Shown in pieces: positions 27,215 to 58,317 of a DNA stretch of 64,000 bases; within the stretch, counting starts at the first letter, position 1, and each line of letters begins with the position of its first letter. The notes below the pieces were generated by a model. The model was not told the DNA's origin and searched no databases. It saw only the letters and a program-made list of their open reading frames with translations. Made by a program: the position numbers and the translations under genes. The DNA comes from a virus. The stretch covers positions 1 to 64,000 of IMG/VR virus record IMGVR_UViG_3300033149_006345; one strand, written 5' to 3'.

Positions 27215-27826
27215 ATGGATGAAATAGCCGTTGTTAAATACAGCATGACCAAAGAGAAAAAGTTCGGTAAGAAGCGAGGTGGAGATCCCATGTCTGAAAT
27301 AGTAACTATACGCCCTGGGCTTATTCGTAGGAACCGTAGAGATTTTTCTGATCCGGTACCTATACGCCGAGTAGTCAATGATCGTCGTTCATCGGGCATA
27401 AACGCCGCTCGTTTGGAAATTACTGAAGCCATACTAAAAGACCTCGAAACTTATATTGTTAGAGGTTGTACCTTGCCGGAAGCCTGCCGGTTGGCGGGCA
27501 TTCCGTACAACCGGTTCAACCGATGGAAAGAACAATACCCCGACTTTGAGGAGTTTGTCAAGACCTGTGAGGCCAAGGCGAAGTATGAGGCATTGGAGCA
27601 AATAAGTACAGCGAGGGAAGGGGGTGTTTGGCAAGCTGCTTCCTGGTTTTTGGAAAGAAAATACCCAGCCGAGTTTGGAAGAAAGGATATGACCCGTCAT
27701 CAAATCGTGCATGAATATCAAGAGTTCATCAAGATCGTGTTGGAGGTTTTGAATGAGGTTGAGCCAGAGTTACGAGCGAGAGTCGTTGATCGGCTCAGGG
27801 ATAAAAACATTACTATCGAAGATTAA
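27215..27826 (+). CDS. terS: Terminase small subunit
   Basis: HTH (EACRLAGIPYNRFNRW) and WQAASWFLERKYP; immediately upstream of terL. Confidence 0.75.
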   Translation: MDEIAVVKYSMTKEKKFGKKRGGDPMSEIVTIRPGLIRRNRRDFSDPVPIRRVVNDRRSSGINAARLEITEAILKDLETYIVRGCTLPEACRLAGIPYNRFNRWKEQYPDFEEFVKTCEAKAKYEALEQISTAREGGVWQAASWFLERKYPAEFGRKDMTRHQIVHEYQEFIKIVLEVLNEVEPELRARVVDRLRDKNITIED

Positions 27827-30107
27827 CATAGATTACAGCGCCGGTATCCCTAGAGGAGAAGAGTTTACCGCCCAAGTTTTGAAAGATGAGCAGGGTGGTA
27901 GGATAGTTAATGATGTGGTGCATAAAGAGTTCCATTGGTTTATCCAGGAATGTCTGGAGGAACATGGAATTAGACGTATGATGATTTTGGGTGCTTTTGG
28001 TCTGGGGAAGTGTTTTTGTCGTGGAACGAAGGTTTTGCTTTATTCTGGTGAAGTAAAGCCAGTTGAAGATGTAAAGGTTGGCGATTTGTTGATGGGAGAT
28101 GACAACACCCCCCGCAAGGTGCTTTCAGTAGCTTCTGGAAGAGAAGAAGCATATAGAATTGTGTTATCTAATGGTGATTTTTATGAGTGTAATGAGTCTA
28201 GTATCTTGCCCGTTATAGTTTCATCTAGGTATAGTAGTTATAAGAAGGGAGACAAGCTGGAAATATCCCTCAAAGACTACCTTGAGTTGCCGGATTGGGT
28301 CAAGGAAAGTTGTTTGAAGATGTATAAAGTTCCGGTAGCTTTCCCAGAGAATCTTGAGATGCAAACACCACCTTATGACTACGGTGCCGCATTGGGCAAG
28401 TCTATCTCTGCATTCGAGTTGGTAAATATTGATGTTGCAAAGGAGTATCTAATCAATAGTGAGGATGTTCGTCTACAGTTTTTAGCTGGATTATTGGATA
28501 CTATTGGTGGGTTTAGTAACTCTGGTCATTATTTACTTACTGTCAGGACCTATTCACTTAAAGAAGATATTTTGTTCCTGTGCAGATCTTTGGGTTTCAG
28601 AGTGCATCTTAGGACTAAGAAGATTAAAGGACTGGATAATTATACTATTACAATAGGTGGTGATATTCACAGAATCCCCTGTAAAATTAAGAAAGCCCCT
28701 GAAAAAACAACAAAAACCAATCCTCTTGTCTTTGGGTTTGAGGCTATTCCCATAGGAGAAAAGGAATATTTTGGCTTTACCTTGGATAAAAATGGATTAT
28801 TTTTGTTACATGATTTTACGGTAGCCCATAACACCGAGCAGATTTCTATAGGTTACGTGTTGGAGTGCATTGCCCGGAACCGAAATGTGCGGATTAAGAT
28901 GGTTAGCAATACTGATGATAATGCTACTGATAGAGTGCGGGCGGTAAAGAATTATATAGAAAATGACGAGGATTTCCTACGGATAGCGCCTCATATAAAG
29001 AAGACAGCGATTTGGGGAAACAGCAAGTTTATTGTTTCCCGTGAATCGAGATCGAAAGATGGTACATTGGAGGCTTATGGTATTTTTGGTTCTGCTATTG
29101 GTGGGCGTGCCGATATGATTGTATTTGACGACCCCCAAGACTTAAAAACTGCTGTTTTGGAACCTAGTAGCAGAGAGAAGTGCATTCAGGTTATTGAGAG
29201 TGTTTGGCTTTCACGTTTGGTGGAGAATGGTGTGGCTATTATTCTAATGAATAGGTGGCATGAATACGATGTTGCTAGGTGGGTGATGTCCAATCCGGAT
29301 TGGGCTTGGTTGGCCATAAGTGTTGATGATAGTTACCGTCATTTAATAGTAGAGAAAAAGATAGGAACTGAGTACGACAAATATAAGATACCACCGTGGA
29401 AACCCCCGGACTATTTTGCACAAAAGCGGTCGGATTTGGGAGACCGAGCCTTTAAGAGAGGCTATCAGCTTGTGCCTTACTCCGACGAAGAGATGTTTTT
29501 CCCTTCTTTTGTCAAATGTTGCCATTTTAATGCAAACAGACAACAGAGAATACGTTCCCTGATTAAGACTAGGGATCATGTTATCGTTTGTGGTTTGGAC
29601 TATGCCTCGACAAAACGTCCTGGTACTTGTTTGGTCACGGTTTTAGCAGAGAAAAGAAGCCAGCAACGTCATCTAGTTGAGGTTGCTATCATGTCGGATG
29701 CCTCCAGGTTGGTGGAGCATATTATTAGGGTTTATACTCGGTACGGTATAGATTTGCTCATGGCTGAAAATAATGCTACACAGGATTTGATAACCGATAT
29801 GCTACAGGCGTTTGGTCAAATTCGTGGCATAAACATTAAGGGATTTTACACGGGCAAGAACAAGGCTGACCCCGATATGGGACTTATATCCCTGGAAAAT
29901 GAGTTTGAGAGAGGGTTATGGAGCTTCTATTTCGATTTTGACCAACCCCGAATCGAGGATGAGAAGAAGGACCCGTATACAAGGTATTATTACGAAATGA
30001 GGGATTACCCCTTTTGGGAAACAACAGATTTGGTCATGGCAACCTGGTTTTGCAGGCAAGGAATTGATTATCTATTTAGGCAAAAGGTGGTGCCTCGTAT
30101 TTATTGA
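27753..30107 (+). CDS. terL: Terminase large subunit, intein-containing
   Basis: Walker A GAFGLGK|T, Walker B GGRADMIVFDD, NRWHEYD, nuclease CGLDYAS, AENNATQ, DLVMA. Confidence 0.92.
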   Translation: MRLSQSYERESLIGSGIKTLLSKINIDYSAGIPRGEEFTAQVLKDEQGGRIVNDVVHKEFHWFIQECLEEHGIRRMMILGAFGLGKCFCRGTKVLLYSGEVKPVEDVKVGDLLMGDDNTPRKVLSVASGREEAYRIVLSNGDFYECNESSILPVIVSSRYSSYKKGDKLEISLKDYLELPDWVKESCLKMYKVPVAFPENLEMQTPPYDYGAALGKSISAFELVNIDVAKEYLINSEDVRLQFLAGLLDTIGGFSNSGHYLLTVRTYSLKEDILFLCRSLGFRVHLRTKKIKGLDNYTITIGGDIHRIPCKIKKAPEKTTKTNPLVFGFEAIPIGEKEYFGFTLDKNGLFLLHDFTVAHNTEQISIGYVLECIARNRNVRIKMVSNTDDNATDRVRAVKNYIENDEDFLRIAPHIKKTAIWGNSKFIVSRESRSKDGTLEAYGIFGSAIGGRADMIVFDDPQDLKTAVLEPSSREKCIQVIESVWLSRLVENGVAIILMNRWHEYDVARWVMSNPDWAWLAISVDDSYRHLIVEKKIGTEYDKYKIPPWKPPDYFAQKRSDLGDRAFKRGYQLVPYSDEEMFFPSFVKCCHFNANRQQRIRSLIKTRDHVIVCGLDYASTKRPGTCLVTVLAEKRSQQRHLVEVAIMSDASRLVEHIIRVYTRYGIDLLMAENNATQDLITDMLQAFGQIRGINIKGFYTGKNKADPDMGLISLENEFERGLWSFYFDFDQPRIEDEKKDPYTRYYYEMRDYPFWETTDLVMATWFCRQGIDYLFRQKVVPRIY
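28011..28832 (+). mobile_element. 274-aa intein with LAGLIDADG-type homing endonuclease domain in the TerL Walker A motif
   Basis: Starts CFCRGTKVLL, ends FTVAHN followed by Thr; internal FLAGLLDTIG. Confidence 0.93.
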
Positions 30108-30869: not shown

Positions 30870-32510
30870 ATGCCGAGAGGAGCACCCGCTTCATTGCTAT
30901 CTAGGGAAGGTATAGGAGAATTGGTAACAACACGAAGAAAGTCGTGGGCAGAGTTGCGGACTTTTTTTGAGAGGGAACGTGCGCTGTCTACCGGTCGGGA
31001 TTACAAGCGAAATCCCTCTAAACAACTGGATGAATATAGAGGGTGGGTATATAGTGCTGTTGATTGTATTGTGGACCGTTTGTGCTCTTTGAGCTATACT
31101 TTCAAAAGAGAAGATACCGGCGAGGTTATTTCACCTTTTGACAAACGTTATCATGCTATATTGAAACCGATAATCAAACCGAATGAGTATATGAGCCTAA
31201 AGTTTTTGATGCAGTTTTGTCAGACTCAATTGGATTTGTGTGGAAAGGCAGCTATCCTGAAAGTAAGAAATGCTTTTGGTAAGCCTTGGGAATTATGGCC
31301 GCTGGATATGAATGATTTCAGGCGTATTGTTTACCCACATAGACGGCAAGCTGGTAGGATTGTACCACCTGTGGGTTTCGAGTTCAGGCTTGGTAACAAG
31401 TTAGTTCTCATCGAGTGGAAGGATATTATATGGTTGCGATATCCAAGTCCTCTTAATATGTGGGATGGTTTCTCACCGATTCGGGCGCAAGCGTATACTA
31501 CAGATATTGATTACTACCTTGAAGTTTACGAGCGGGGTTTCTTTAGAAATTCGGCTCGGGTGGATTTTGTGATTGAAGGGGAAAATCTTACTGAGGAAGA
31601 CGCCAAGCGGTTGAAGCAAGAGTGGGTAAAGAAGTATGGTGGCCCAAAACGGTCATATGAGCCTGCTGTACTTACTGGCGGTATTAAGATTGTTCCTATA
31701 ACAATGACCAATAAGGATTTTCAGTTTTTGGAGCTGGCACGTTGGACCAAGGAACGTATTTTGAGTGCTTACCGTGTGCCAGAGGGCAAGTTGGGTTTAT
31801 TCCGTGATATCAATAGAGCCAACCAGAAAGGGATAGATATAGCATTTAATGAAGGTGCCATTTTGCCTCGGGCACGTTTGTGGGAGTCGGAGTTGACCTA
31901 TCAGCTCATTTGGGCTGATTTTACGGAAAAGGTCTCCATTGAGTTTGAGAATCCAATTCCTAGAGATAGGGAGGCAGATCTGAAAGAGTTGCAATTACGT
32001 AGTGGTAAGGGTATGGTTCCTATCAATACTATAAATGAGTTGCGTAATTGGTGGGATGGTTCTCCGTCTATAGCAGGAGGTGATGCAATTTTGGTAAATC
32101 AGAATCTTGTACCTATTACGAGTGTTGTTGGGGAGAATGGAGAGGGTGATACGGAGTCAGGTAATGAAAAACCTCCAGTAACAGACGATGATGATAAGCC
32201 CGGTCAGACGGACGATGATCCTGAATATGATCCTGAATATGATCCCGGCGGAGAGGAGTCTGATAAAAAGATACTGGATTGGGAAAAAGCGCTGGCACCT
32301 TTAGTTGGAAAGTATAGAGAGGCAATAAGCAAAACCAAAGGGTGGTCAGTTGCAAAGGTGGAAAATTATTTGAGAGGTTTAGAGCTTGATGTGAGTGATG
32401 GGGTGAAGAGAATTTTCGAGAACTGTGTGCTGAAGGATTATCCAGAGGTTAAATTTAAGCAAGCGGTAAAGGCATATCTTATTTTGACGGCAGTAAGGCG
32501 TAAAAATTAA
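30870..32510 (+). CDS. Portal protein (HK97 type)
   Basis: WVYSAVDCI, KPNEYMS, GFSPI, FFRNSA, DFQFLE, AYRVP, TINELR. Confidence 0.95.
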   Translation: MPRGAPASLLSREGIGELVTTRRKSWAELRTFFERERALSTGRDYKRNPSKQLDEYRGWVYSAVDCIVDRLCSLSYTFKREDTGEVISPFDKRYHAILKPIIKPNEYMSLKFLMQFCQTQLDLCGKAAILKVRNAFGKPWELWPLDMNDFRRIVYPHRRQAGRIVPPVGFEFRLGNKLVLIEWKDIIWLRYPSPLNMWDGFSPIRAQAYTTDIDYYLEVYERGFFRNSARVDFVIEGENLTEEDAKRLKQEWVKKYGGPKRSYEPAVLTGGIKIVPITMTNKDFQFLELARWTKERILSAYRVPEGKLGLFRDINRANQKGIDIAFNEGAILPRARLWESELTYQLIWADFTEKVSIEFENPIPRDREADLKELQLRSGKGMVPINTINELRNWWDGSPSIAGGDAILVNQNLVPITSVVGENGEGDTESGNEKPPVTDDDDKPGQTDDDPEYDPEYDPGGEESDKKILDWEKALAPLVGKYREAISKTKGWSVAKVENYLRGLELDVSDGVKRIFENCVLKDYPEVKFKQAVKAYLILTAVRRKN

Positions 32511-32537: not shown

Positions 32538-34247
32538 ATGGCATACAGGGTTAAAGCCAAGGACGAAAATGGAGCTGAGCGGAATGTTGTCATCAACGGC
32601 AAAGAGGTATTGGGTTTTGACGTTTCACCTGATCTAGTTGAGATTAAAGAAGTTGACGAGGAAAACAGGTCATTTTTGGCTACGGCGGCGTCGGAGGCAC
32701 CGGATCGGATATACGATATTATTCGTATAGCAGGGATTGATCTTACTGACTACGAGAAAAATCCTGTTGTTATGTGGGCACATGAGTACCGTGCTCTTCC
32801 GTTGGGCATTTCTCTGGAGACTATCAAACGCCCTAGAAAGAAGGTACTGGAATTTCGGCCAAATTTCGATGACCATGAGTTTGCTGAAAAAGTTTATCGC
32901 TCTTATCTGAAGAAGATAATGCGTGGTTTTTCCGTTGGCTTGCTTCCCATTGAGATGGAGAAGCGACAAGATATGACGGAAGAGGAAAAGGCACAAGCTG
33001 GGTATTTTGGTGGTTGGGAAATCAAGAAGTCGTCTTTGTTGGAGATAAGTTGTGCTCCTATACCAATGCACCAGGATGCTTTGGCGCAAATGAAGGCGGT
33101 AGGTTTTCCAATGGAACTTCTGTCTCCAGCCGATTTAGGTTTTGGTAATAAGGAGAAGGCATTGGATGACGGAAGTTATTGGGTTCCTGTGGAAGACACC
33201 ATGCTGTTTTTCAATCATAAGACCATCCCCTTGGATGATAAGGTAAATGCTATTGTTGCTGATCCTCTTGGTGCTAGTGGGAGTGGACGCAATCTCTCCA
33301 AGGTGGTTGGTTATCTCTTTTCCAAAGATATGTCTGAGGAGGAGAGGGCTGAATGGTTGTCTTCCTTTGGGGTTAGCGACCGTAATGTTATGATTGTTGC
33401 CTCTGATACGAATGTTTTGGAGCTGTCGGCAGAAGAAATAGGTTTAGTCAAAGGTATTTGCGGTTCGTCATCGTTGCCTTTGAGTGATAAGTCTTCTTGG
33501 GATGGCGATGCAGCCAGGAAGAGAATGTGGGAAAAGGGATTATCCACTTTTAAGAAAGGGCATGTATGGCAAAAACCAGATGAGAATCCGGAGACAAAGG
33601 GAGCCTATTCTTTACCCTTTGCGGATATAATTGATGGCACTTTAACTGCTGTTTGGGGTGGTGTTCGTGCGGCAATGGCTGCGGTACATGGTGCTCGTAA
33701 TGCTCCAGAAGGAGATAGGAGAAAACAACATAATTTCCTTGCCAAATATTATAGACGTTTTGGTAAGGAACCGCCAGAGTTCAAAACATATACTGATGAG
33801 GAATTACATGAAATTTTTGGTATTGACACTTCTGATATAGATAAACAAAATTCCACTGACGGTGACCACCAAGGAACGGCGAATGACATGGAACCCATTG
33901 TTAATGTTGTGAGGGAGGAGTTGACCGAGTTGTTTAATACTTTTAAGGAGGAAGTGGTTACAGCTATCAGAGCTTCATTGGAGGAAACTTCTGCTTCTTC
34001 TAGAGAACCAAATATCACTCAAGGAGCCGACGAGGGTGACGCCACTTTTGTGCAGGCGGTGGGTGAGTTGGTAGCTAAGTTGAAAGAGGATAAGGATACT
34101 CCGGTGATACCAGACGATCTCTCCCAGGAAGATATAGTAAAGCTCTCTGAAATGGTGGCGCAATCGCTTGGTGCCACTTTGGGTGATGCTATAGCTTCTA
34201 CGGTGGAAGAGAATCTGAAGAGTTATGCTGGTATCATTGACGACTAA
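32538..34247 (+). CDS. Prohead maturation protease with large accessory and scaffold-like extensions
   Basis: NPVVMWAH, GFSVG, LLEISCAPIPM; LPFADIIDGTLTAVWGGV domain; acidic helical tail. Confidence 0.88.
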   Translation: MAYRVKAKDENGAERNVVINGKEVLGFDVSPDLVEIKEVDEENRSFLATAASEAPDRIYDIIRIAGIDLTDYEKNPVVMWAHEYRALPLGISLETIKRPRKKVLEFRPNFDDHEFAEKVYRSYLKKIMRGFSVGLLPIEMEKRQDMTEEEKAQAGYFGGWEIKKSSLLEISCAPIPMHQDALAQMKAVGFPMELLSPADLGFGNKEKALDDGSYWVPVEDTMLFFNHKTIPLDDKVNAIVADPLGASGSGRNLSKVVGYLFSKDMSEEERAEWLSSFGVSDRNVMIVASDTNVLELSAEEIGLVKGICGSSSLPLSDKSSWDGDAARKRMWEKGLSTFKKGHVWQKPDENPETKGAYSLPFADIIDGTLTAVWGGVRAAMAAVHGARNAPEGDRRKQHNFLAKYYRRFGKEPPEFKTYTDEELHEIFGIDTSDIDKQNSTDGDHQGTANDMEPIVNVVREELTELFNTFKEEVVTAIRASLEETSASSREPNITQGADEGDATFVQAVGELVAKLKEDKDTPVIPDDLSQEDIVKLSEMVAQSLGATLGDAIASTVEENLKSYAGIIDD

Positions 34248-34274: not shown

Positions 34275-35555
34275 ATGGACAAGGAAAAATTGATGAAGCA
34301 ACTTCAGGAGATTAACGAGGAGATCGTCAAGCGTTATATTGGTAGCGATGAATTTACTAATATGATCAACAAGCGCATCCAGACCTTTATGGAGACTTTG
34401 CAAAAGCAGCTCCAGGGGGACTCAACTGCTGGTGCGATTGCTGATGCACAGCCTTCATCGCTTCCATTCGTGCAGGCGACTCTTCCTTACGCCAACGTCC
34501 GAGGAAATCTGATTGTTACACGCCAGGGGTCCGTATTGGATATCACCAAGAAGACTCCGTGGGTGCAGGTTTCCAAGGAAGTGCAGGATTGGGCCTCTGA
34601 TTTTCTTCAGTACGTGCAGAGTCGGGGGCGAGTTGTCGGTAAGACTCTTCAGGAAAGTGAGGACCCGAGTGGTGGGTATCTCGTACCGGAAGAGTTTAGG
34701 GCAACTATCCTGATGTACGATGCAGAACCGGCTATTGTTTGGCCCAGGGCTACTGTGTGGCCGATGGCGACCGATAAGCTGGGTATGCCGAAGTTGGCGC
34801 AGTCTCCTGATGGTATTGAGAATGACGACTATGACCATTTTGCGGGTGTAGCGTTTACCTGGACTGATGAAGGTGGTTCCAAGACCGAGACGGAACCTGA
34901 CTTCGAGTTCATTGAGCTTATTGCTCATGAGCTTTCTGGGTATACCGCTATCACTAACACTCTTATGGACGATAGCCCAATTAACCTGATGAACTTCTTG
35001 ACCACTTTGTTCAGGGGTGCATGGGTATGGCAGACCGACAAGGCATTTATCCGTCAGGATGGTGCCAATAAGCCGTTGGGGGTGACCAAAGACCCGAGTG
35101 TGTTGTCTGTGAACCGGAATACTGCTTCCACGGTGAAATATGCCGATCTGCTGAATATGGTTAAGAAGCTCCCCTCGGTATTTGACGCTGGAGCCGTTTG
35201 GTTCTTCAATAAGGAAGTCCATGCTGCTATTCGTAATGAGCGTGATAACAACAACGCTTTGCTGTTGCAGCAAACTTACGATTCGGCGGCTGGTAAGATG
35301 ATTGAGATTCTGCTGGGCTACCCTGTAGTCAAGTCCGACGGCAAGACTTATCCGATGGGGACTAAGGGCGATGTCATTTTGGGCAATTGGGCCTACTATT
35401 ATATTGGTGACAGGCAGGAGTTCAGGTTGGATACCAGCGAGCATTATCTGTTCCGTAGCAATAAGCTCGCAATCAGGGTAGCCAGCCGTCTGGATGGTCA
35501 GCCAGCGATTCCAGAGGCTTTTGTGGTTCTGGATGACGTGGCTTCCGCCAGCTAA
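34275..35555 (+). CDS. Major capsid protein (HK97 fold)
   Basis: GGYLVPEEF, WTDEG, KPLG, LLGYPV, GDVILGNW, RLDG. Confidence 0.95.
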   Translation: MDKEKLMKQLQEINEEIVKRYIGSDEFTNMINKRIQTFMETLQKQLQGDSTAGAIADAQPSSLPFVQATLPYANVRGNLIVTRQGSVLDITKKTPWVQVSKEVQDWASDFLQYVQSRGRVVGKTLQESEDPSGGYLVPEEFRATILMYDAEPAIVWPRATVWPMATDKLGMPKLAQSPDGIENDDYDHFAGVAFTWTDEGGSKTETEPDFEFIELIAHELSGYTAITNTLMDDSPINLMNFLTTLFRGAWVWQTDKAFIRQDGANKPLGVTKDPSVLSVNRNTASTVKYADLLNMVKKLPSVFDAGAVWFFNKEVHAAIRNERDNNNALLLQQTYDSAAGKMIEILLGYPVVKSDGKTYPMGTKGDVILGNWAYYYIGDRQEFRLDTSEHYLFRSNKLAIRVASRLDGQPAIPEAFVVLDDVASAS

Positions 35556-35588: not shown

Positions 35589-36041
35589 ATGAGTGCAAAG
35601 CGTGATATGACCAATAATACGCTGGTGATTCCTTTTGTTACCCATACCACGCACCAGACCAACACCGGCATCTTGACCAGCAATTATGATACGATGCGTG
35701 GTGGAGCCAACCCGACGAGGATGTTGCTGATTTTGCTGATGTCCAGTTGGGGAAGCGGTGGCTCGGTTACTGTGCGGGTACAGGATTGTAATACCAGCAA
35801 CGGTACTTTCTCTACTCGGGCAACTTTGGGGGCTGCCAACCAGTCCACCGGGCAGACTTGTTTTATGGCGGAGGTGAGCGATTTTCGCCGGTTTGTCCGT
35901 CTCAGCTATGATGTGACTGGTGCAGCTTGTACCCTGTCTATCATTGGTATTTGTCAGCGTGGGCGAAAGGAGCCGGTGACGCAGTATGATGCTGTTGGCA
36001 AGCTGTCTGTGTCCCAGACGGTTGCTCCTGAAGCCTCGTAA
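35589..36041 (+). CDS. Probable capsid decoration/cement protein, Ser/Thr-rich beta protein
   Basis: Directly follows the capsid gene; VRVQDC...RRFVRLSYDV pattern. Confidence 0.65.
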   Translation: MSAKRDMTNNTLVIPFVTHTTHQTNTGILTSNYDTMRGGANPTRMLLILLMSSWGSGGSVTVRVQDCNTSNGTFSTRATLGAANQSTGQTCFMAEVSDFRRFVRLSYDVTGAACTLSIIGICQRGRKEPVTQYDAVGKLSVSQTVAPEAS

Positions 36042-36056: not shown

Positions 36057-36092
36057 CTTCCCTACCTGTACGCTTTTGTACAGGTAGGGAAG
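36057..36092 (+). promoter_or_regulatory. 15-bp perfect hairpin after the capsid genes (mRNA stabiliser, processing site or partial terminator)
   Basis: CTTCCCTACCTGTAC-gctttt-GTACAGGTAGGGAAG; no long U-tract. Confidence 0.65.
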
Positions 36093-36135: not shown

Positions 36136-36450
36136 ATGGCTGTTAAGGTTAAACTGACAAAACTATCTTTGATTAGACGGTATAGAAAATCTGTATTGGA
36201 AGTAAGTGAGGCGGAAGCCGCCCGGATGATCGGATCAGGGCTGGCTGTAGCAGTAACTTCTTTTGATGGACCACCGGTTAATAAACTGGTAGCTTCTCCT
36301 GGTATTAAGAAAGAAGTAGCAGAAATAAAGGAGGCTGATACCGCAGAAAACCCTACTGGGAAAGCGGAGGAACCTCCGAAACCTCCGCAGAAAAACAAAA
36401 AGAAAAAATCGAAGAAGTCAAGGAAGAAAGTCAAGGTAAATATCCAGTAG
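36136..36450 (+). CDS. Small head-module protein with Lys-rich tail
   Basis: EVSEAEAARMIGSGLAV motif of small post-capsid ORFs; SD AAGGAG. Confidence 0.7.
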   Translation: MAVKVKLTKLSLIRRYRKSVLEVSEAEAARMIGSGLAVAVTSFDGPPVNKLVASPGIKKEVAEIKEADTAENPTGKAEEPPKPPQKNKKKKSKKSRKKVKVNIQ

Positions 36451-37409
36451 CACGTTGGTCTCCTTCTTTACCCTATGCACTTTGTAAGGTTGGTTGGATA
36501 CAGGACGCTGAGGTATTAGGTGGTGCTGAATTATCCAATCTACAGATAATCAAACGAGGTCTGGAGTTAGGTTTTGCTATTAGGGTTATAACTCCGGACA
36601 GTTTTGATCGTGACTGGATTGCCATTTCTGACTTTCTCATTTTCAATAACTTTTATACCTTTCCATCAAATCTTTGGCATTATTTGTTGCAAGTCATTTG
36701 GGAGTATAGGAAGCCTTATGTAATATATTCTCATGATCATCGGGATATATATGGTGAGACTGCTAGACTCTCTTTTGCATGGCGTTGGTTTAAGCATTCC
36801 TTCTTGAATGTCTTTATTTCTCCGGCACATTATGCCAACTTTAAGAAATGTTTAGGCAGTGCTGCCGAGCCGCATTTTATCTTACCCCCACCGATAGACA
36901 CCGAATTTTTCTACCCCAGGGAAGAAGTTACTAGGAAACCAAAGACTGTTGTTAATCTTACCGGTAGATTGGTTAGCAGTAAGGGTCTGATGAATGTTTA
37001 TAAGTGGGCCGCAGCAAACCCTGACTATAAGGTAAATGTTTATACGAAGTATGCCGAAGGTACCAGCGGTAAGGTTTTGGAGACTAAGAATAATATAACT
37101 ATCCATAAACCTGTACCATATGCCCTTTTGCCGTATATCTACTCTGAACATGAGTATGTGTTACATCTTCCTGAAGATTGGGAAGCGGCGGGGAGGACAT
37201 TGGTAGAGGGTTTATTGTGTGGTTGGACATTGGTAGAGGGTTTATTGTGTGGTTGTATCCCGATTTGCAATAGTAAAGTAGGAGTTGCTAGTTTCGCACC
37301 GGATCTATTGTCATACGGTCGTGAAAATCTGGCTGTGATTTTGGAGGAAGGACAGTATATTTTTTGGTACAATATTTATCGGTATTTCCAGTTATTGGAG
37401 GAAAGATAG
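36339..37409 (+). CDS. GT4-like glycosyltransferase; open frame lacks a standard start before its N-terminal motif
   Basis: Frame open from 36339; KVGWIQD..LGGAELS at about 36486-36537; EAAGRTLVE (ExE7) motif. Confidence 0.8.
   Translation, partial: YRRKPYWESGGTSETSAEKQKEKIEEVKEESQGKYPVARWSPSLPYALCKVGWIQDAEVLGGAELSNLQIIKRGLELGFAIRVITPDSFDRDWIAISDFLIFNNFYTFPSNLWHYLLQVIWEYRKPYVIYSHDHRDIYGETARLSFAWRWFKHSFLNVFISPAHYANFKKCLGSAAEPHFILPPPIDTEFFYPREEVTRKPKTVVNLTGRLVSSKGLMNVYKWAAANPDYKVNVYTKYAEGTSGKVLETKNNITIHKPVPYALLPYIYSEHEYVLHLPEDWEAAGRTLVEGLLCGWTLVEGLLCGCIPICNSKVGVASFAPDLLSYGRENLAVILEEGQYIFWYNIYRYFQLLEER
37195..37254 (+). repeat. Exact 30-bp tandem duplication
   Basis: GGACATTGGTAGAGGGTTTATTGTGTGGTT x2. 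Confidence 0.95.
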
Positions 37410-54820: not shown

Positions 54821-55207
54821 ATGAACAAAGATAATGTACAGCAAGATCGAGTAAGGAACTTTGATGAATATGATCAGCCTGAGAGATTTAAGTTTCGGGG
54901 GGAGGTTTACGAAATCCCCCCGATCTCTCAGGATACTTCTGACAGATTGGCTGCTATTTCCGAGAGACTGATTGCTCTTACTGATGAGGGCAAATATACT
55001 GAAGCGAATGCGTGTGTATTCGAGTATGTTTTGGTGGCTATGCTGGGGGACGACTATACCCCAGAGAAATTGGAGGAGATGAGGCAAGATCGCAAGTATA
55101 GGGCTTTCCCCAGAAGGATGTTGCATGATTTGATGTCGTTGATAAATACAATGCAGGGGCTTCCTTCGGAAATGACCCCTGTAGAGGAGGTTAAGGCAAA
55201 AAAGTAA
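54821..55207 (+). CDS. Tail assembly chaperone (G-like)
   Basis: Lies between tube and tape measure genes; ends in a slippery site. Confidence 0.8.
   Translation: MNKDNVQQDRVRNFDEYDQPERFKFRGEVYEIPPISQDTSDRLAAISERLIALTDEGKYTEANACVFEYVLVAMLGDDYTPEKLEEMRQDRKYRAFPRRMLHDLMSLINTMQGLPSEMTPVEEVKAKK
55198..55204 (+). promoter_or_regulatory. Programmed -1 frameshift heptamer A AAA AAG
   Basis: In frame just before TAA; GGAGG at 55186-90; -1 frame open to 55533. Confidence 0.85.
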
Positions 55208-55533: not shown

Positions 55534-58317
55534 ATGCCTATAGGCACGCCGGATATTTTAGCGAAATTCAAAGGGGATATTAGCAATTTTGAGAGGGCCA
55601 TAGTCCAAAGCTCTTTGGCTGCGGGCAAGTTTGCCGAGCAGATGGCTTCGCATAATAAGACTATGGCTGCCGAGGCTAGGCGTGCGTATCAAGCCGAGAT
55701 GCAGAAGGTTAGAGCACTTAGACAAGCTGCCGCTGCTAGAAGGAGACAAGTAGTTGCGATAGAACGGGCGACACGGGAAATACGCCGGTCTACAAAGGCT
55801 GCGGAGCAACAGAATCATTCCTTTTCCTCTTTTTCTAAGACGTTGGGTACGTCTATTACTCTTTGGTATACCGCTAGAACGGCCATTTACGCCTTTCGGA
55901 ATGCTGTTGAAGATGTCATTTCTATTTACCGCAAAGGAATTGAGGCACTAGACGAGTTCAAAACCAGCGTTATTGGCGTCTCTGCTGTAATGATTCCTTA
56001 CGTTAAGGAGGGCACTACAGCAGTTGAGAAAATGGAATTGGCATTGCGGCACAATACCGAAGCCTTCAAAGACATGGAAATTGTCGCCGCAAAGCATATT
56101 GCTACTGGTAAATCTTTGCAGATGGTTTACGAGGCTTTGGCTGTCAGTGGTGTTTTTGCCTCCAAAGAGGATATTGATAATGTAGCGAAGTTGGCTGATT
56201 TTATTACGTTGTACACCAAGGGCCAGCGCCTTGAAGTCCAATTGATACAGGAAATTAGAGGTTTGATGGATGGGCAAGTCAGGGCGCAAAATAGGTTGGC
56301 ATATACTTTAGATAGGCTTTTAGGTGGTAGTCTGAAAGAGTACGTTGAGAAATGGAAGGAAGCCGGTAGGGATCAAAAAGGACAGTTGGTTGTCTTATCC
56401 GAGATAGTCAACCGTCTTGGTAATATTGACGTTTTGCAGGGGGAAATTCTGAATACTGTTGGTGCCTGGAAGAATACTCTTATAACGATAGGCACCAGGC
56501 TCTTGCGGGAAAGTGTAGTTCAGGCGCATTCTGATATTGTTTCCCTTTTGAAGAGAGTAGTTGGTTACGTCTATGATCTTGAAACTGGTTACACGAGGCA
56601 AGGACGTATTCTACAGTCTATAATTCGAGAGGGTTGGTTGAAAATACGGGATGTTGCGGAAGGCTTTCTTGGTACAGAACTGCGGAATATAAACCAAGTG
56701 ATGGATGAGCTTTTGGCAAAGAGCCAGAAGTTTGTGTTTAATTTGGATGGAAAGAAGATTGGAGAACAATTACGGGCAGGGTTTGAAATAGCTAAAGAGG
56801 CGGTTGAAGGTCTCTTTCTGCTGGTGAAAGCATATTTGGTGTATAAAATCCCGTATTGGGCGGTGAAAGCTGGTGAAGCACTGCTAGCAGCACTTGCTGG
56901 GAGGGCAACAATTGCTGAAGTTGCTGGGTTGTGGGGTTTAGTAACTCTGGTTGTTTATGAGTTAGCAAAAGCGTATAAAGAGGCAGCCAAAGAATCGGAA
57001 ACCCTGCAACGAATAAATGAAAAGCTAGCGCCGATTTTTGAACGATTGGCGAAAGCTATGTCAAATCTTTATGGGGCCGAAGTTGGTCTTGGGGAGGGGG
57101 GTAGAACTCAATTTATTAGGAGACCAATTGCATTTCCCCGTGGTGCAAAATACCCAGAAATATTAGAACGACATGGCGCAAGGGCAATAGCCCCTCCCCC
57201 AAGCATGCGCCCCGCTGGCCCGACTTTTGTAACTCCTGATAAGTGGTTTGAAAAGTATAAAGAAGAGCTGGAAGATACAGTAAAGAAGGAAAAAGAGCTG
57301 ACTGCGGATGACTGGATTACTCGGAGAATAAAAGGACGGGAAGAAGCATTAGAAAATCTATACAAAGCACAAAAAGCACTTTGGCAACTAACGGAAAAGG
57401 AGAGAAGGCGTAGAGAGGAAATAGATAGAATAGTTGCCGAAGGAATAGAGGAAGAGAAGAAAAGAAGGCAAGAAGAATTAGATCAATATGTTTCTGATTT
57501 AGGGGAATATCTTGCCCAGCAAGCTAAATTGGCAGAAGAAAGAGCTAGCCTACAGAAAACTTGGCATTTGGAAGTTATACGTCTTACTAAAGGTGAACTG
57601 GAAGCCAAAAAGGAGGCATTGAAGGAAGAAGAGGAGGCTATTAGGGAGAAGTTTGGCAATGATTTGGAGCTATTAAAGTTATACCATAAGTACAGAGATA
57701 AACTTTTAGAGGAGGAAGTTAGGAAGGATCAGTTAGCCAAAGCTGAAATGCTGTCTAATACCTTCAGCAATTTATCTGAGACTTTTAGGTTGCAGGGGCA
57801 ATATAGCAAAAAGTGGTTTAGGATGCACCAAGCTATGGCCGTCTCTCAAATTATAGTCGATACCTCCAGGGCAATTATGGCTACCTTAGCCAAAGAAGGC
57901 TGGTGGGCTTATGCTTTAGCTGGCTCAATTGCTGCATTGGGTGCAGCACAAATTGCTACCGTTTTACGACAAGAGCCACCGACTGTTACCGGTTTGGCAG
58001 AGGGTGGTGTTAGTCCTGGTGGTTTTAAGTCTTTGGCAGAGACGGTGCTTTCCAAACCAACGTATGTTGTTGCTGAAAGACAAGGTAGACCTGAGGCTGT
58101 GGTTCCATTGGACAAATATGATATATCGAGGAAAGGTAAAGGCGGCGGTGCCGTTGTTGTTGGAGATAGATATCAAGTGACTATTATGGCTGTTGACGCA
58201 AAGTCGCTGTGGGATATGTATACCAGAAACCGCCCTGTATTTGAGGGTATGATTGTTGAAATGTTGAGAAGTGGCAAGTCCAATGTGAAGGCAGCGGCCC
58301 GAAGTGCTGTGAGGTAA
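55534..58317 (+). CDS. Tail tape measure protein
   Basis: 927-aa helical Ala/Glu/Lys-rich ORF; C-terminal GLAEGG...GRPEAVVPL. Confidence 0.9.
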   Translation: MPIGTPDILAKFKGDISNFERAIVQSSLAAGKFAEQMASHNKTMAAEARRAYQAEMQKVRALRQAAAARRRQVVAIERATREIRRSTKAAEQQNHSFSSFSKTLGTSITLWYTARTAIYAFRNAVEDVISIYRKGIEALDEFKTSVIGVSAVMIPYVKEGTTAVEKMELALRHNTEAFKDMEIVAAKHIATGKSLQMVYEALAVSGVFASKEDIDNVAKLADFITLYTKGQRLEVQLIQEIRGLMDGQVRAQNRLAYTLDRLLGGSLKEYVEKWKEAGRDQKGQLVVLSEIVNRLGNIDVLQGEILNTVGAWKNTLITIGTRLLRESVVQAHSDIVSLLKRVVGYVYDLETGYTRQGRILQSIIREGWLKIRDVAEGFLGTELRNINQVMDELLAKSQKFVFNLDGKKIGEQLRAGFEIAKEAVEGLFLLVKAYLVYKIPYWAVKAGEALLAALAGRATIAEVAGLWGLVTLVVYELAKAYKEAAKESETLQRINEKLAPIFERLAKAMSNLYGAEVGLGEGGRTQFIRRPIAFPRGAKYPEILERHGARAIAPPPSMRPAGPTFVTPDKWFEKYKEELEDTVKKEKELTADDWITRRIKGREEALENLYKAQKALWQLTEKERRRREEIDRIVAEGIEEEKKRRQEELDQYVSDLGEYLAQQAKLAEERASLQKTWHLEVIRLTKGELEAKKEALKEEEEAIREKFGNDLELLKLYHKYRDKLLEEEVRKDQLAKAEMLSNTFSNLSETFRLQGQYSKKWFRMHQAMAVSQIIVDTSRAIMATLAKEGWWAYALAGSIAALGAAQIATVLRQEPPTVTGLAEGGVSPGGFKSLAETVLSKPTYVVAERQGRPEAVVPLDKYDISRKGKGGGAVVVGDRYQVTIMAVDAKSLWDMYTRNRPVFEGMIVEMLRSGKSNVKAAARSAVR

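Follow-up and report, generated by a model that had tools for sequence, protein, structure and literature searches.

How does a phage produce a conserved enzyme whose reading frame contains no start codon? The question is raised by a glycosyltransferase (GT) frame in an environmental phage known from a 76.6-kb IMG/VR virus record, of which we analysed a 64,000-nt part (the window). The frame overlaps the end of a short upstream gene, here ORF1, and lies in the -1 frame relative to it. A first, sequence-only reading of this DNA proposed that a programmed -1 shift joins the two into a fusion of roughly 424 aa. That proposal is supported by a conserved start-less -1 overlap, by orthologues fused in frame and by purifying selection, and a shift at AAG 36400-36402 does give ~424 aa. 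We consider that the locus is probably read by -1 ribosomal frameshifting on a run of AAA/AAG codons (36391-36408), yielding both a 104-aa product and the longer fusion.

ORF1 and the GT frame would then constitute one gene. Ribosomes would start at ATG 36136 and translate a 40-residue domain (the N-domain) and a linker, and most would stop at 36448, releasing the 104-aa protein. A fraction would slip back one base on the AAA/AAG Lys codons through re-pairing of tRNA-Lys, as at sites of the A_AAG type, and continue to 37409. The shifted product would comprise N-domain, linker and GT-B glycosyltransferase, which is the architecture that most relatives encode as an in-frame fusion. We infer that the event is ribosomal, and likewise its exact slip codon, any stimulator (such as the SD-like GGAGG), its efficiency and the bringing of the enzyme to the capsid protein by the N-domain.

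Genomic setting

The locus follows a head module (Table 1) and opens a cluster of glycosyltransferase, methyltransferase and sulfotransferase-like genes that occupies ~16 kb before the head-completion and tail genes. Related genes lie directly 3' of an HK97-type capsid gene in ~45 loci. No promoter or terminator was found between ORF1 and the GT frame, and no tRNA genes were found in the window. Between the 150-aa gene and ORF1 there is a perfect 15-bp hairpin (CTTCCCTACCTGTAC / GTACAGGTAGGGAAG, 6-nt loop; 36057-36092) without a clear T-tract, which may lower expression of the glycan cluster relative to the capsid genes. Upstream of the portal gene, Hint and homing-endonuclease domains (Pfam Hom_end_hint, E 3e-17) mark a 784-aa ORF (27753-30107) as containing an intein; this gene probably encodes the large terminase.

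Table 1. Features of the ORF1/GT locus and of the preceding head module, in window coordinates
Feature	Position	Strand	Basis or remark
Portal gene	30870-32510		Head module
Protease-like gene	32538-34247		Head module
HK97-type major capsid protein	34275-35555		Head module
150-aa protein	35589-36041		Head module, 3' of the capsid gene
ORF1, zero frame, 104 aa	36136-36450	+	Translation; start ATG 36136, stop 36448-36450
N-domain in ORF1, 40 residues, beta-alpha-beta-alpha-beta	36136-36255	+	AF2 model and homology to the N-terminus of fused GTs
Overlap window for a shift from ORF1 to the -1 frame	36339-36450	+	-1 frame opens after TGA 36336-36338; ORF1 stop 36448-36450
Hairpin GCGGAGG...CCTCCGC with SD-like GGAGG (36366-36370), just 5' of the Lys run	36364-36389	+	Fold
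Lys/Asn run AAA AAC AAA AAG AAA AAA	36391-36408	+	Sequence
Candidate slip site G_AAA_AAC	36390-36396	+	Sequence
Candidate slip site C_AAA_AAG	36396-36402	+	Sequence
Candidate slip site G_AAA_AAA	36402-36408	+	Sequence
GT-B (GT4-like) domain, -1 frame, first beta-strand KVGWIQD to stop	36486-37409	+	Homologues, AF2 model of P0011
First ATG/GTG/TTG in the GT frame (TTG)	36684-36686	+	66 codons past KVGW
Perfect 30-bp tandem duplication, 10-aa insert TLVEGLLCGW/TLVEGLLCGC	37195-37255	+	TRF: 2.0 copies, 100% match

A glycosyltransferase frame without a start codon

Translation confirms that the GT frame is open from 36339 and overlaps the end of ORF1 in the -1 frame, as had been read from the sequence; it runs to a stop at 37407-37409 and reads ...EKIEEVKEESQGKYPVARWSPSLPYALCKVGWIQDAEVLGGAELSN. 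The frame had also been described as lacking ATG, GTG and TTG up to about 36681. The absence stands, and only the position needs correction, as the first such codon is the TTG at 36684. This TTG encodes a conserved Leu and is not a start. Start-type codons account for 7.15% of the in-frame codons of the 31 other genes in the window, so a stretch of 115 codons without one has P ~2e-4. The sole near-cognate codon upstream of KVGW is ATC 36408, which is 26 codons away.

The residues encoded from 36486, KVGWIQDAEVLGGAELSN, make up the first strand of a GT-B enzyme and its Gly-rich loop. The earlier recognition of a GT-B N-terminus in this frame agrees with the homologues and with Foldseek matches of an AF2 model of P0011, a fused homologue that is 40% identical to the window protein (22-sequence alignment, pLDDT 88). 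In the model, residues 1-38 form a beta-alpha-beta-alpha-beta domain and residues 40-62 a disordered linker, followed by the GT-B enzyme, and the matches include HepE (4xsu), PimA (2gej), BshA (3mbo) and WaaG (2iv7) at E-values of 1e-8 to 3e-11. The two Rossmann-like domains by which GT4 membership is recognized are present in this model of the window protein's homologue. No Pfam Glyco_transf_4 or Glycos_transf_1 match rose above the gathering score (Glyco_transf_4, 20.1 bits against a cut-off of 28.5), and no PHROG match was found for the GT. The family is too divergent for curated profiles. It adds to environmental phages an unannotated GT family, with no Pfam or PHROG assignment, that carries a small N-terminal domain and is always encoded next to the capsid gene.

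The E-x7-E motif is present as EAAGRTLVE, and 17 sequences all share its E, A, G, R and E. Directly after it, the tandem duplication adds 10 aa that are missing from all 16 aligned homologues. The duplication may have arisen in assembly, or it may be a very recent insertion, possibly one that impairs the enzyme.

ORF1 and its N-terminal domain

Beyond the N-domain, ORF1 consists of a disordered linker rich in Pro, Glu and Lys, a Lys run and a short tail, and its C-terminus is basic (...QKNKKKKSKKSRKKVKVNIQ, then the stop). An AF2 model of ORF1, folded with relatives, gives pLDDT >90 for residues 1-40 and ~55-65 for the disordered residues 41-104. Going by this model, ORF1 looks like a domain plus linker rather than a finished structural protein. 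ORF1 had been taken for an independent small gene of the head module. That view is not upheld, as fused homologues identify it as the N-terminal domain and linker of the GT family: the N-terminal part of the fused proteins (MKIRYTDRAMIQRFG...VSD...GKAIPVTSFDNPLVDK) is clearly homologous to ORF1 of the window (VKVKLTKLSLIRRYR...VSE...GLAVAVTSFDGPPVNK).

The N-domain itself resembles little that is known. No Pfam family was found for it, no second copy was found in the window, and a word-based protein search with ORF1 returned only the self-match. Structure searches gave weak matches (Z <=3.8) to the GINS B-domain, the ribosomal L9 N-domain and the lambda gpFI C-domain, and the best BFVD E-value was 0.03; we draw no function from weak fold matches. 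A profile search of 1.8 billion representatives returned 51 proteins, some of them fused (300-450 aa) and many standing alone (59-115 aa). Three of the stand-alone proteins (P0024, P0045 and P0064) are built like ORF1, with an N-domain, a Pro-rich linker, a Lys run and a short tail. Five loci (L006, L011, L012, L030 and L033) have a tandem pair of N-domains before the GT. In two proteins of ~1500 aa (P0021 and P0033), the profile matches 6-8 stretches, so the module is reused there as a repeat.

Fused, split and probably frameshifted relatives

A protein search with the open GT frame recovered two groups of homologues. Proteins of the first group (369-406 aa, ~40% identity; P0011-P0019) are in-frame fusions with an ORF1-like domain, a linker of Lys, Glu and Arg, and the motif VGWVQD..GGAELSN. 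The second group consists of eight closer proteins (54-63% identity, 225-300 aa), all of which were called with truncated N-termini inside or after GGAELSN. The DNA of 57 related loci, some of which lack the N-domain, came from scans of IMG/VR and JGI metagenomes. Homologues were available on both sides of the question of whether the parts are fused in frame or keep the overlap, and both arrangements occur: the window's own clade keeps the -1 overlap, and distant relatives are fused.

The clade (hereafter, the L clade) is represented by five contigs from five metagenomic datasets (L001/L002, L043, L045 and L058), with four distinct sequences, given that L001 and L002 are 1 nt apart in the 2 kb compared. 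Its GTs are 60-72% identical to that of the window and the layout is the same: frame 0 encodes an ORF1 of 101-105 aa, frame -1 encodes the GT, and ATG, GTG and TTG are absent before KVAW. Across the window and the four L-clade sequences, both the frame relation and the Lys-run site are conserved. Gene callers truncate the GT in every clade member, a matter of some consequence for annotation. Seven of the homologous GTs (P0002-P0008) may be frameshifted too, judging by their truncated N-termini, as may P0024, P0045 and P0064, which are stand-alone ORF1s with Lys runs.

Around 30 more distant loci (L003-L037 and others) encode N-domain, linker and GT fused in frame, and a few are split. In the split forms L048 and L049, a TTG overlaps the upstream TGA behind GGAGGAG, and in L050 the stop is followed by an ATG. 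Given these forms, a covalent link between N-domain and GT is not strictly required for function. The existence of fused, split and frameshifted versions of one two-part gene makes this family well suited to the question of why a lineage would retain a frameshift and not a fusion.

A blastn search of a phage collection gave no match. Among 185,579 species genomes there was a single match, to the in-frame fused locus L057 on an 11-kb contig (CAZIKS010000127.1) of an uncultured Pirellulales MAG. The occurrence in a planctomycete MAG is a faint clue to the host of this phage group.

Selection on the start-less codons

Is the GT frame translated upstream of its first canonical start? In the 66 GT-frame codons concerned, L001 and L043 differ by synonymous-only changes in 23 codons and by replacements in 2, and the window differs from L001 by 19, 9 and 40 substitutions at first, second and third codon positions. 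These substitutions show clear purifying selection on the start-less codons, a pattern that marks a coding frame. Between L001 and L043, substitutions 5' of the Lys run fall 6/6/28 on the positions of frame 0 (28 of 40 third). In the 18 codons from the Lys run to the ORF1 stop, four of five are third-position changes when read in frame -1; they cause 0 amino-acid changes in that frame and 5 in frame 0. It seems that the coding frame changes at the Lys run, with p ~0.05 for the small post-run sample. The window and L001 share P-x3-W-x5-Y-x3-KV-x-W in the -1 frame.

The window is a single metagenomic assembly, and the odd layout could in principle reflect a sequencing or assembly indel, or a decaying pseudogene. 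We regard this as extremely unlikely. The -1 layout is repeated in the five other contigs, from as many metagenomic datasets, and the sequencing indel that had been listed as an alternative is therefore excluded. Strong purifying selection on the GT, which keeps its catalytic motifs, likewise excludes a pseudogene. One specific assembly error was considered and rejected: an ATG at 36475 combined with a missing T would give MHFCKVGW..., and the relatives have no such ATG while keeping the -1 layout.

A second possibility is that the GT is translated independently as one half of a split pair, through coupling or re-initiation at a non-canonical codon near the ORF1 stop. The split relatives with their own starts fit this idea, as do the many stand-alone N-domain proteins and the L-clade ORF1s, which stop exactly on the KVAW codons. 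Yet L001 and L045 are free of NTG and ATN codons all the way from the upstream stop to the first beta-strand. In the window and L043 the only candidate is an ATC, at unrelated positions (in L043, 32 codons upstream). A canonical start comes only after 66 codons of the Rossmann domain, and these codons are under purifying selection. The -1 frame upstream of the ORF1 stop also changes synonymously. Because L001 and L045 have no usable codon and the upstream codons are under selection, independent initiation fails as an explanation and seems unlikely; the non-canonical start suggested earlier as an alternative falls with it. The preferred reading, a -1 shift out of ORF1, leads to the sequence of the overlap.

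The lysine codon run and its surroundings

The A-rich stretch and the A-AAG motif that had been picked out in the overlap are both there. In the ORF1 frame the stretch reads CAG AAA AAC AAA AAG AAA AAA (36388-36408), followed by TCG, with AAA_AAG in phase at 36397-36402. No perfect X_XXY_YYZ heptamer was found in the overlap. Since the base before AAA is G or C at the candidate sites, P-site re-pairing would require either a mismatch at the first position or a G:U pair. In the L clade, G_AAA_AAG is present twice. Four other window genes also contain this motif in frame, and so it is not special by itself; a run of four or more Lys occurs in none of the 31 others. A_AAG is the classic minimal bacterial -1 site, and A_AAA_AAG is the strongest heptamer (PMC5009743).

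The one feature common to all six overlaps (window, L001/L002, L043, L045 and L058) is the in-phase run of Lys codons. In L001 it reads CCC AAG AAA AAG AAG AAA AAG AAA, and L043, L058 and L045 have 8 to 11 Lys. Its length varies (7-11 Lys) solely by multiples of 3 nt, which preserves the -1 relation. Just 3' of the run in the window, a 12/13-nt direct repeat (36411-36436; GAAGAAGTCAAG / GAAGAAAGTCAAG) is read as EEVKEESQ in frame -1 and as KKSRKKVK in frame 0.

These properties also bear on two other ways of joining the frames. If RNA polymerase added one A within the A-run, a fraction of the mRNAs would encode the fusion in frame, an outcome identical to that of ribosomal slippage; RNA polymerase slippage has been described for Thermus dnaX (PMC5009743). 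The A6 of the window and the A8 of L045 are compatible with such an event. However, the longest A-runs are only A5 in L001, L043 and L058, as well as A6 in the window, and known sites of transcriptional slippage usually span 7-9 bases or more. Moreover, what is conserved is in-phase AAA/AAG codons, not a homopolymer. Transcriptional slippage is thus quite unlikely here.

The switch might instead occur in the DNA, with the Lys run gaining or losing bases in the population (phase variation, or a compensated indel) and in-frame genomes coexisting with an out-of-frame majority, the form assembled. The run is repetitive and differs in length among relatives, and the perfect 30-bp duplication in the GT gene is a sign of replication slippage. 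Against this, six of six assemblies share the -1 phase, all length differences are multiples of 3 nt, and A5-A6 is short for slipped-strand switching. We judge DNA-level switching very unlikely.

For ribosomal slippage, a candidate stimulator lies upstream. The hairpin with the SD-like element just 5' of the run is a possible one. GGAGGAA is kept in the relatives, and GGAGG is 10 nt 5' of the first G_AAA_AAG in three of the four L-clade sequences (L001, L045 and L058); in L043 it is 15 nt away, and in the window, where GGAGG pairs within the hairpin, it is 19 nt from the run. No hairpin or pseudoknot stood out downstream, the sequence folding no better than shuffles (z-scores near 0), and there was no Rfam match near the site. 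Covariation was detected at no pair; the 8-bp GGAGGAAG/CUUCCUCC pairing that flanks the L-clade run is invariant and therefore provides no covariation evidence.

The genome has a second recoding site, as the sequence-only reading had noted, in the tail-chaperone genes. There, A_AAA_AAG (55198-55207) is directly followed by TAA TAG and preceded, at a distance of 7 nt, by GAGGAGG; the -1 frame, which opens just before the site, runs to the tape-measure gene at 55534. The presence of this textbook heptamer in the same phage indicates that slippage on Lys codons evidently works in its host.

Comparison with known recoding systems

The recoding mechanism itself is already known, and it is the gene family and its fused, split and frameshifted series that are new as far as the literature was searched. 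E. coli dnaX, which encodes tau and gamma and has A_AAA_AAG, an SD-like element 10 nt upstream and a 3' hairpin, likewise shifts by -1 on Lys AAA-AAG codons and obtains two products from one start. The 10-nt spacing is that which stimulates the dnaX shift (PMC5009743), and is matched in L001, L045 and L058. The two systems differ in that the shift truncates the dnaX product, whereas here the long product is the shifted one. They also differ in the imperfect heptamer (G or C before AAA), in the 3' hairpin, which was not found here, and in the spacing of 19 nt in the window.

Shifting on a tetranucleotide A_AAG is established for B. subtilis cdd (A_CGA_AAG) and IS1222 (G_CGA_AAG) (PMC5009743). 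Both resemble the present locus in that one tRNA-Lys slips on A_AAG and no complete heptamer is involved. An upstream SD-like sequence helps the shift at these two sites. In cdd the shift is incidental, whereas here it would be the sole route to a conserved enzyme.

Among phage systems, the tail assembly chaperones G/GT provide a conserved -1 shift within a morphogenesis operon through which some of the product molecules gain an extra domain at the C-terminus, and the same Lys-codon chemistry operates in the same genome (55198). G/GT belongs to another gene family, and the part added here is an enzyme; furthermore, the relatives of the present gene include plain fusions and split genes, which is not the rule for G/GT. 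The phage T7 capsid proteins 10A and 10B are a short and a long product made from a head-module gene by -1 frameshifting. They differ in that a structural protein gains a short tail in T7, whereas here a small domain would gain a whole glycosyltransferase. To our knowledge, there are few conserved programmed phage frameshifts outside tail-chaperone genes, and no published programmed frameshift that produces a glycosyltransferase was found in the literature searched.

Possible role at the capsid

Why would a phage place such an enzyme behind its capsid gene? The virion glycosylation genes of mycobacteriophages include glycosyltransferase genes near capsid genes (cited in PMC11256854, PMC11600133). 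The likeness lies in phage glycosyltransferases encoded beside the capsid gene, presumably modifying virion proteins. The differences are that no sequence relationship was found (there was no match in the phage collection) and that the present cluster, at ~16 kb, is far larger. No report of a frameshift or of an N-terminal docking domain in mycobacteriophage glycosylation genes was found in the literature searched. A capsid-adjacent GT together with a 16-kb glycan cluster points to virion glycosylation well beyond the mycobacteriophage examples.

The tethering of the priming glycosyltransferase to the head, suggested in the sequence-only reading, stays a hypothesis: synteny and a weak complex prediction make it plausible that the N-domain docks this enzyme on the capsid. 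The predicted complex of capsid protein and N-domain scored weakly, at 0.41 versus 0.00 for the best control; at least 82% of contacts are shared between runs, and the partner pLDDT is at least 71. The mark set for a complex was reached by 58 of 80 solved complexes and by 2 of 110 mismatched pairs, and at scores of 0.60 or under it was reached by only 7 of those 80 and by both of the mismatches.

More tentatively, and with considerable doubt, the N-domain may be a capsid-docking module, with the frameshift setting a fixed ratio of free N-domain bearing a poly-Lys tail to N-domain tethered to the priming enzyme. If true, the phage would control the number of enzymes on the capsid or procapsid, and hence the density of the glycan coat, and different phage lineages would use one module as a fusion, as a split pair or by way of a frameshift.

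The capsid gene of one relative also has an unusual feature. In L001 (IMGVR_UViG_3300010413_002165), the major capsid protein gene contains an insertion of ~795 bp (1602-2396) relative to the otherwise near-identical L002; the insertion looks like a mobile intron, an intein or a homing element.
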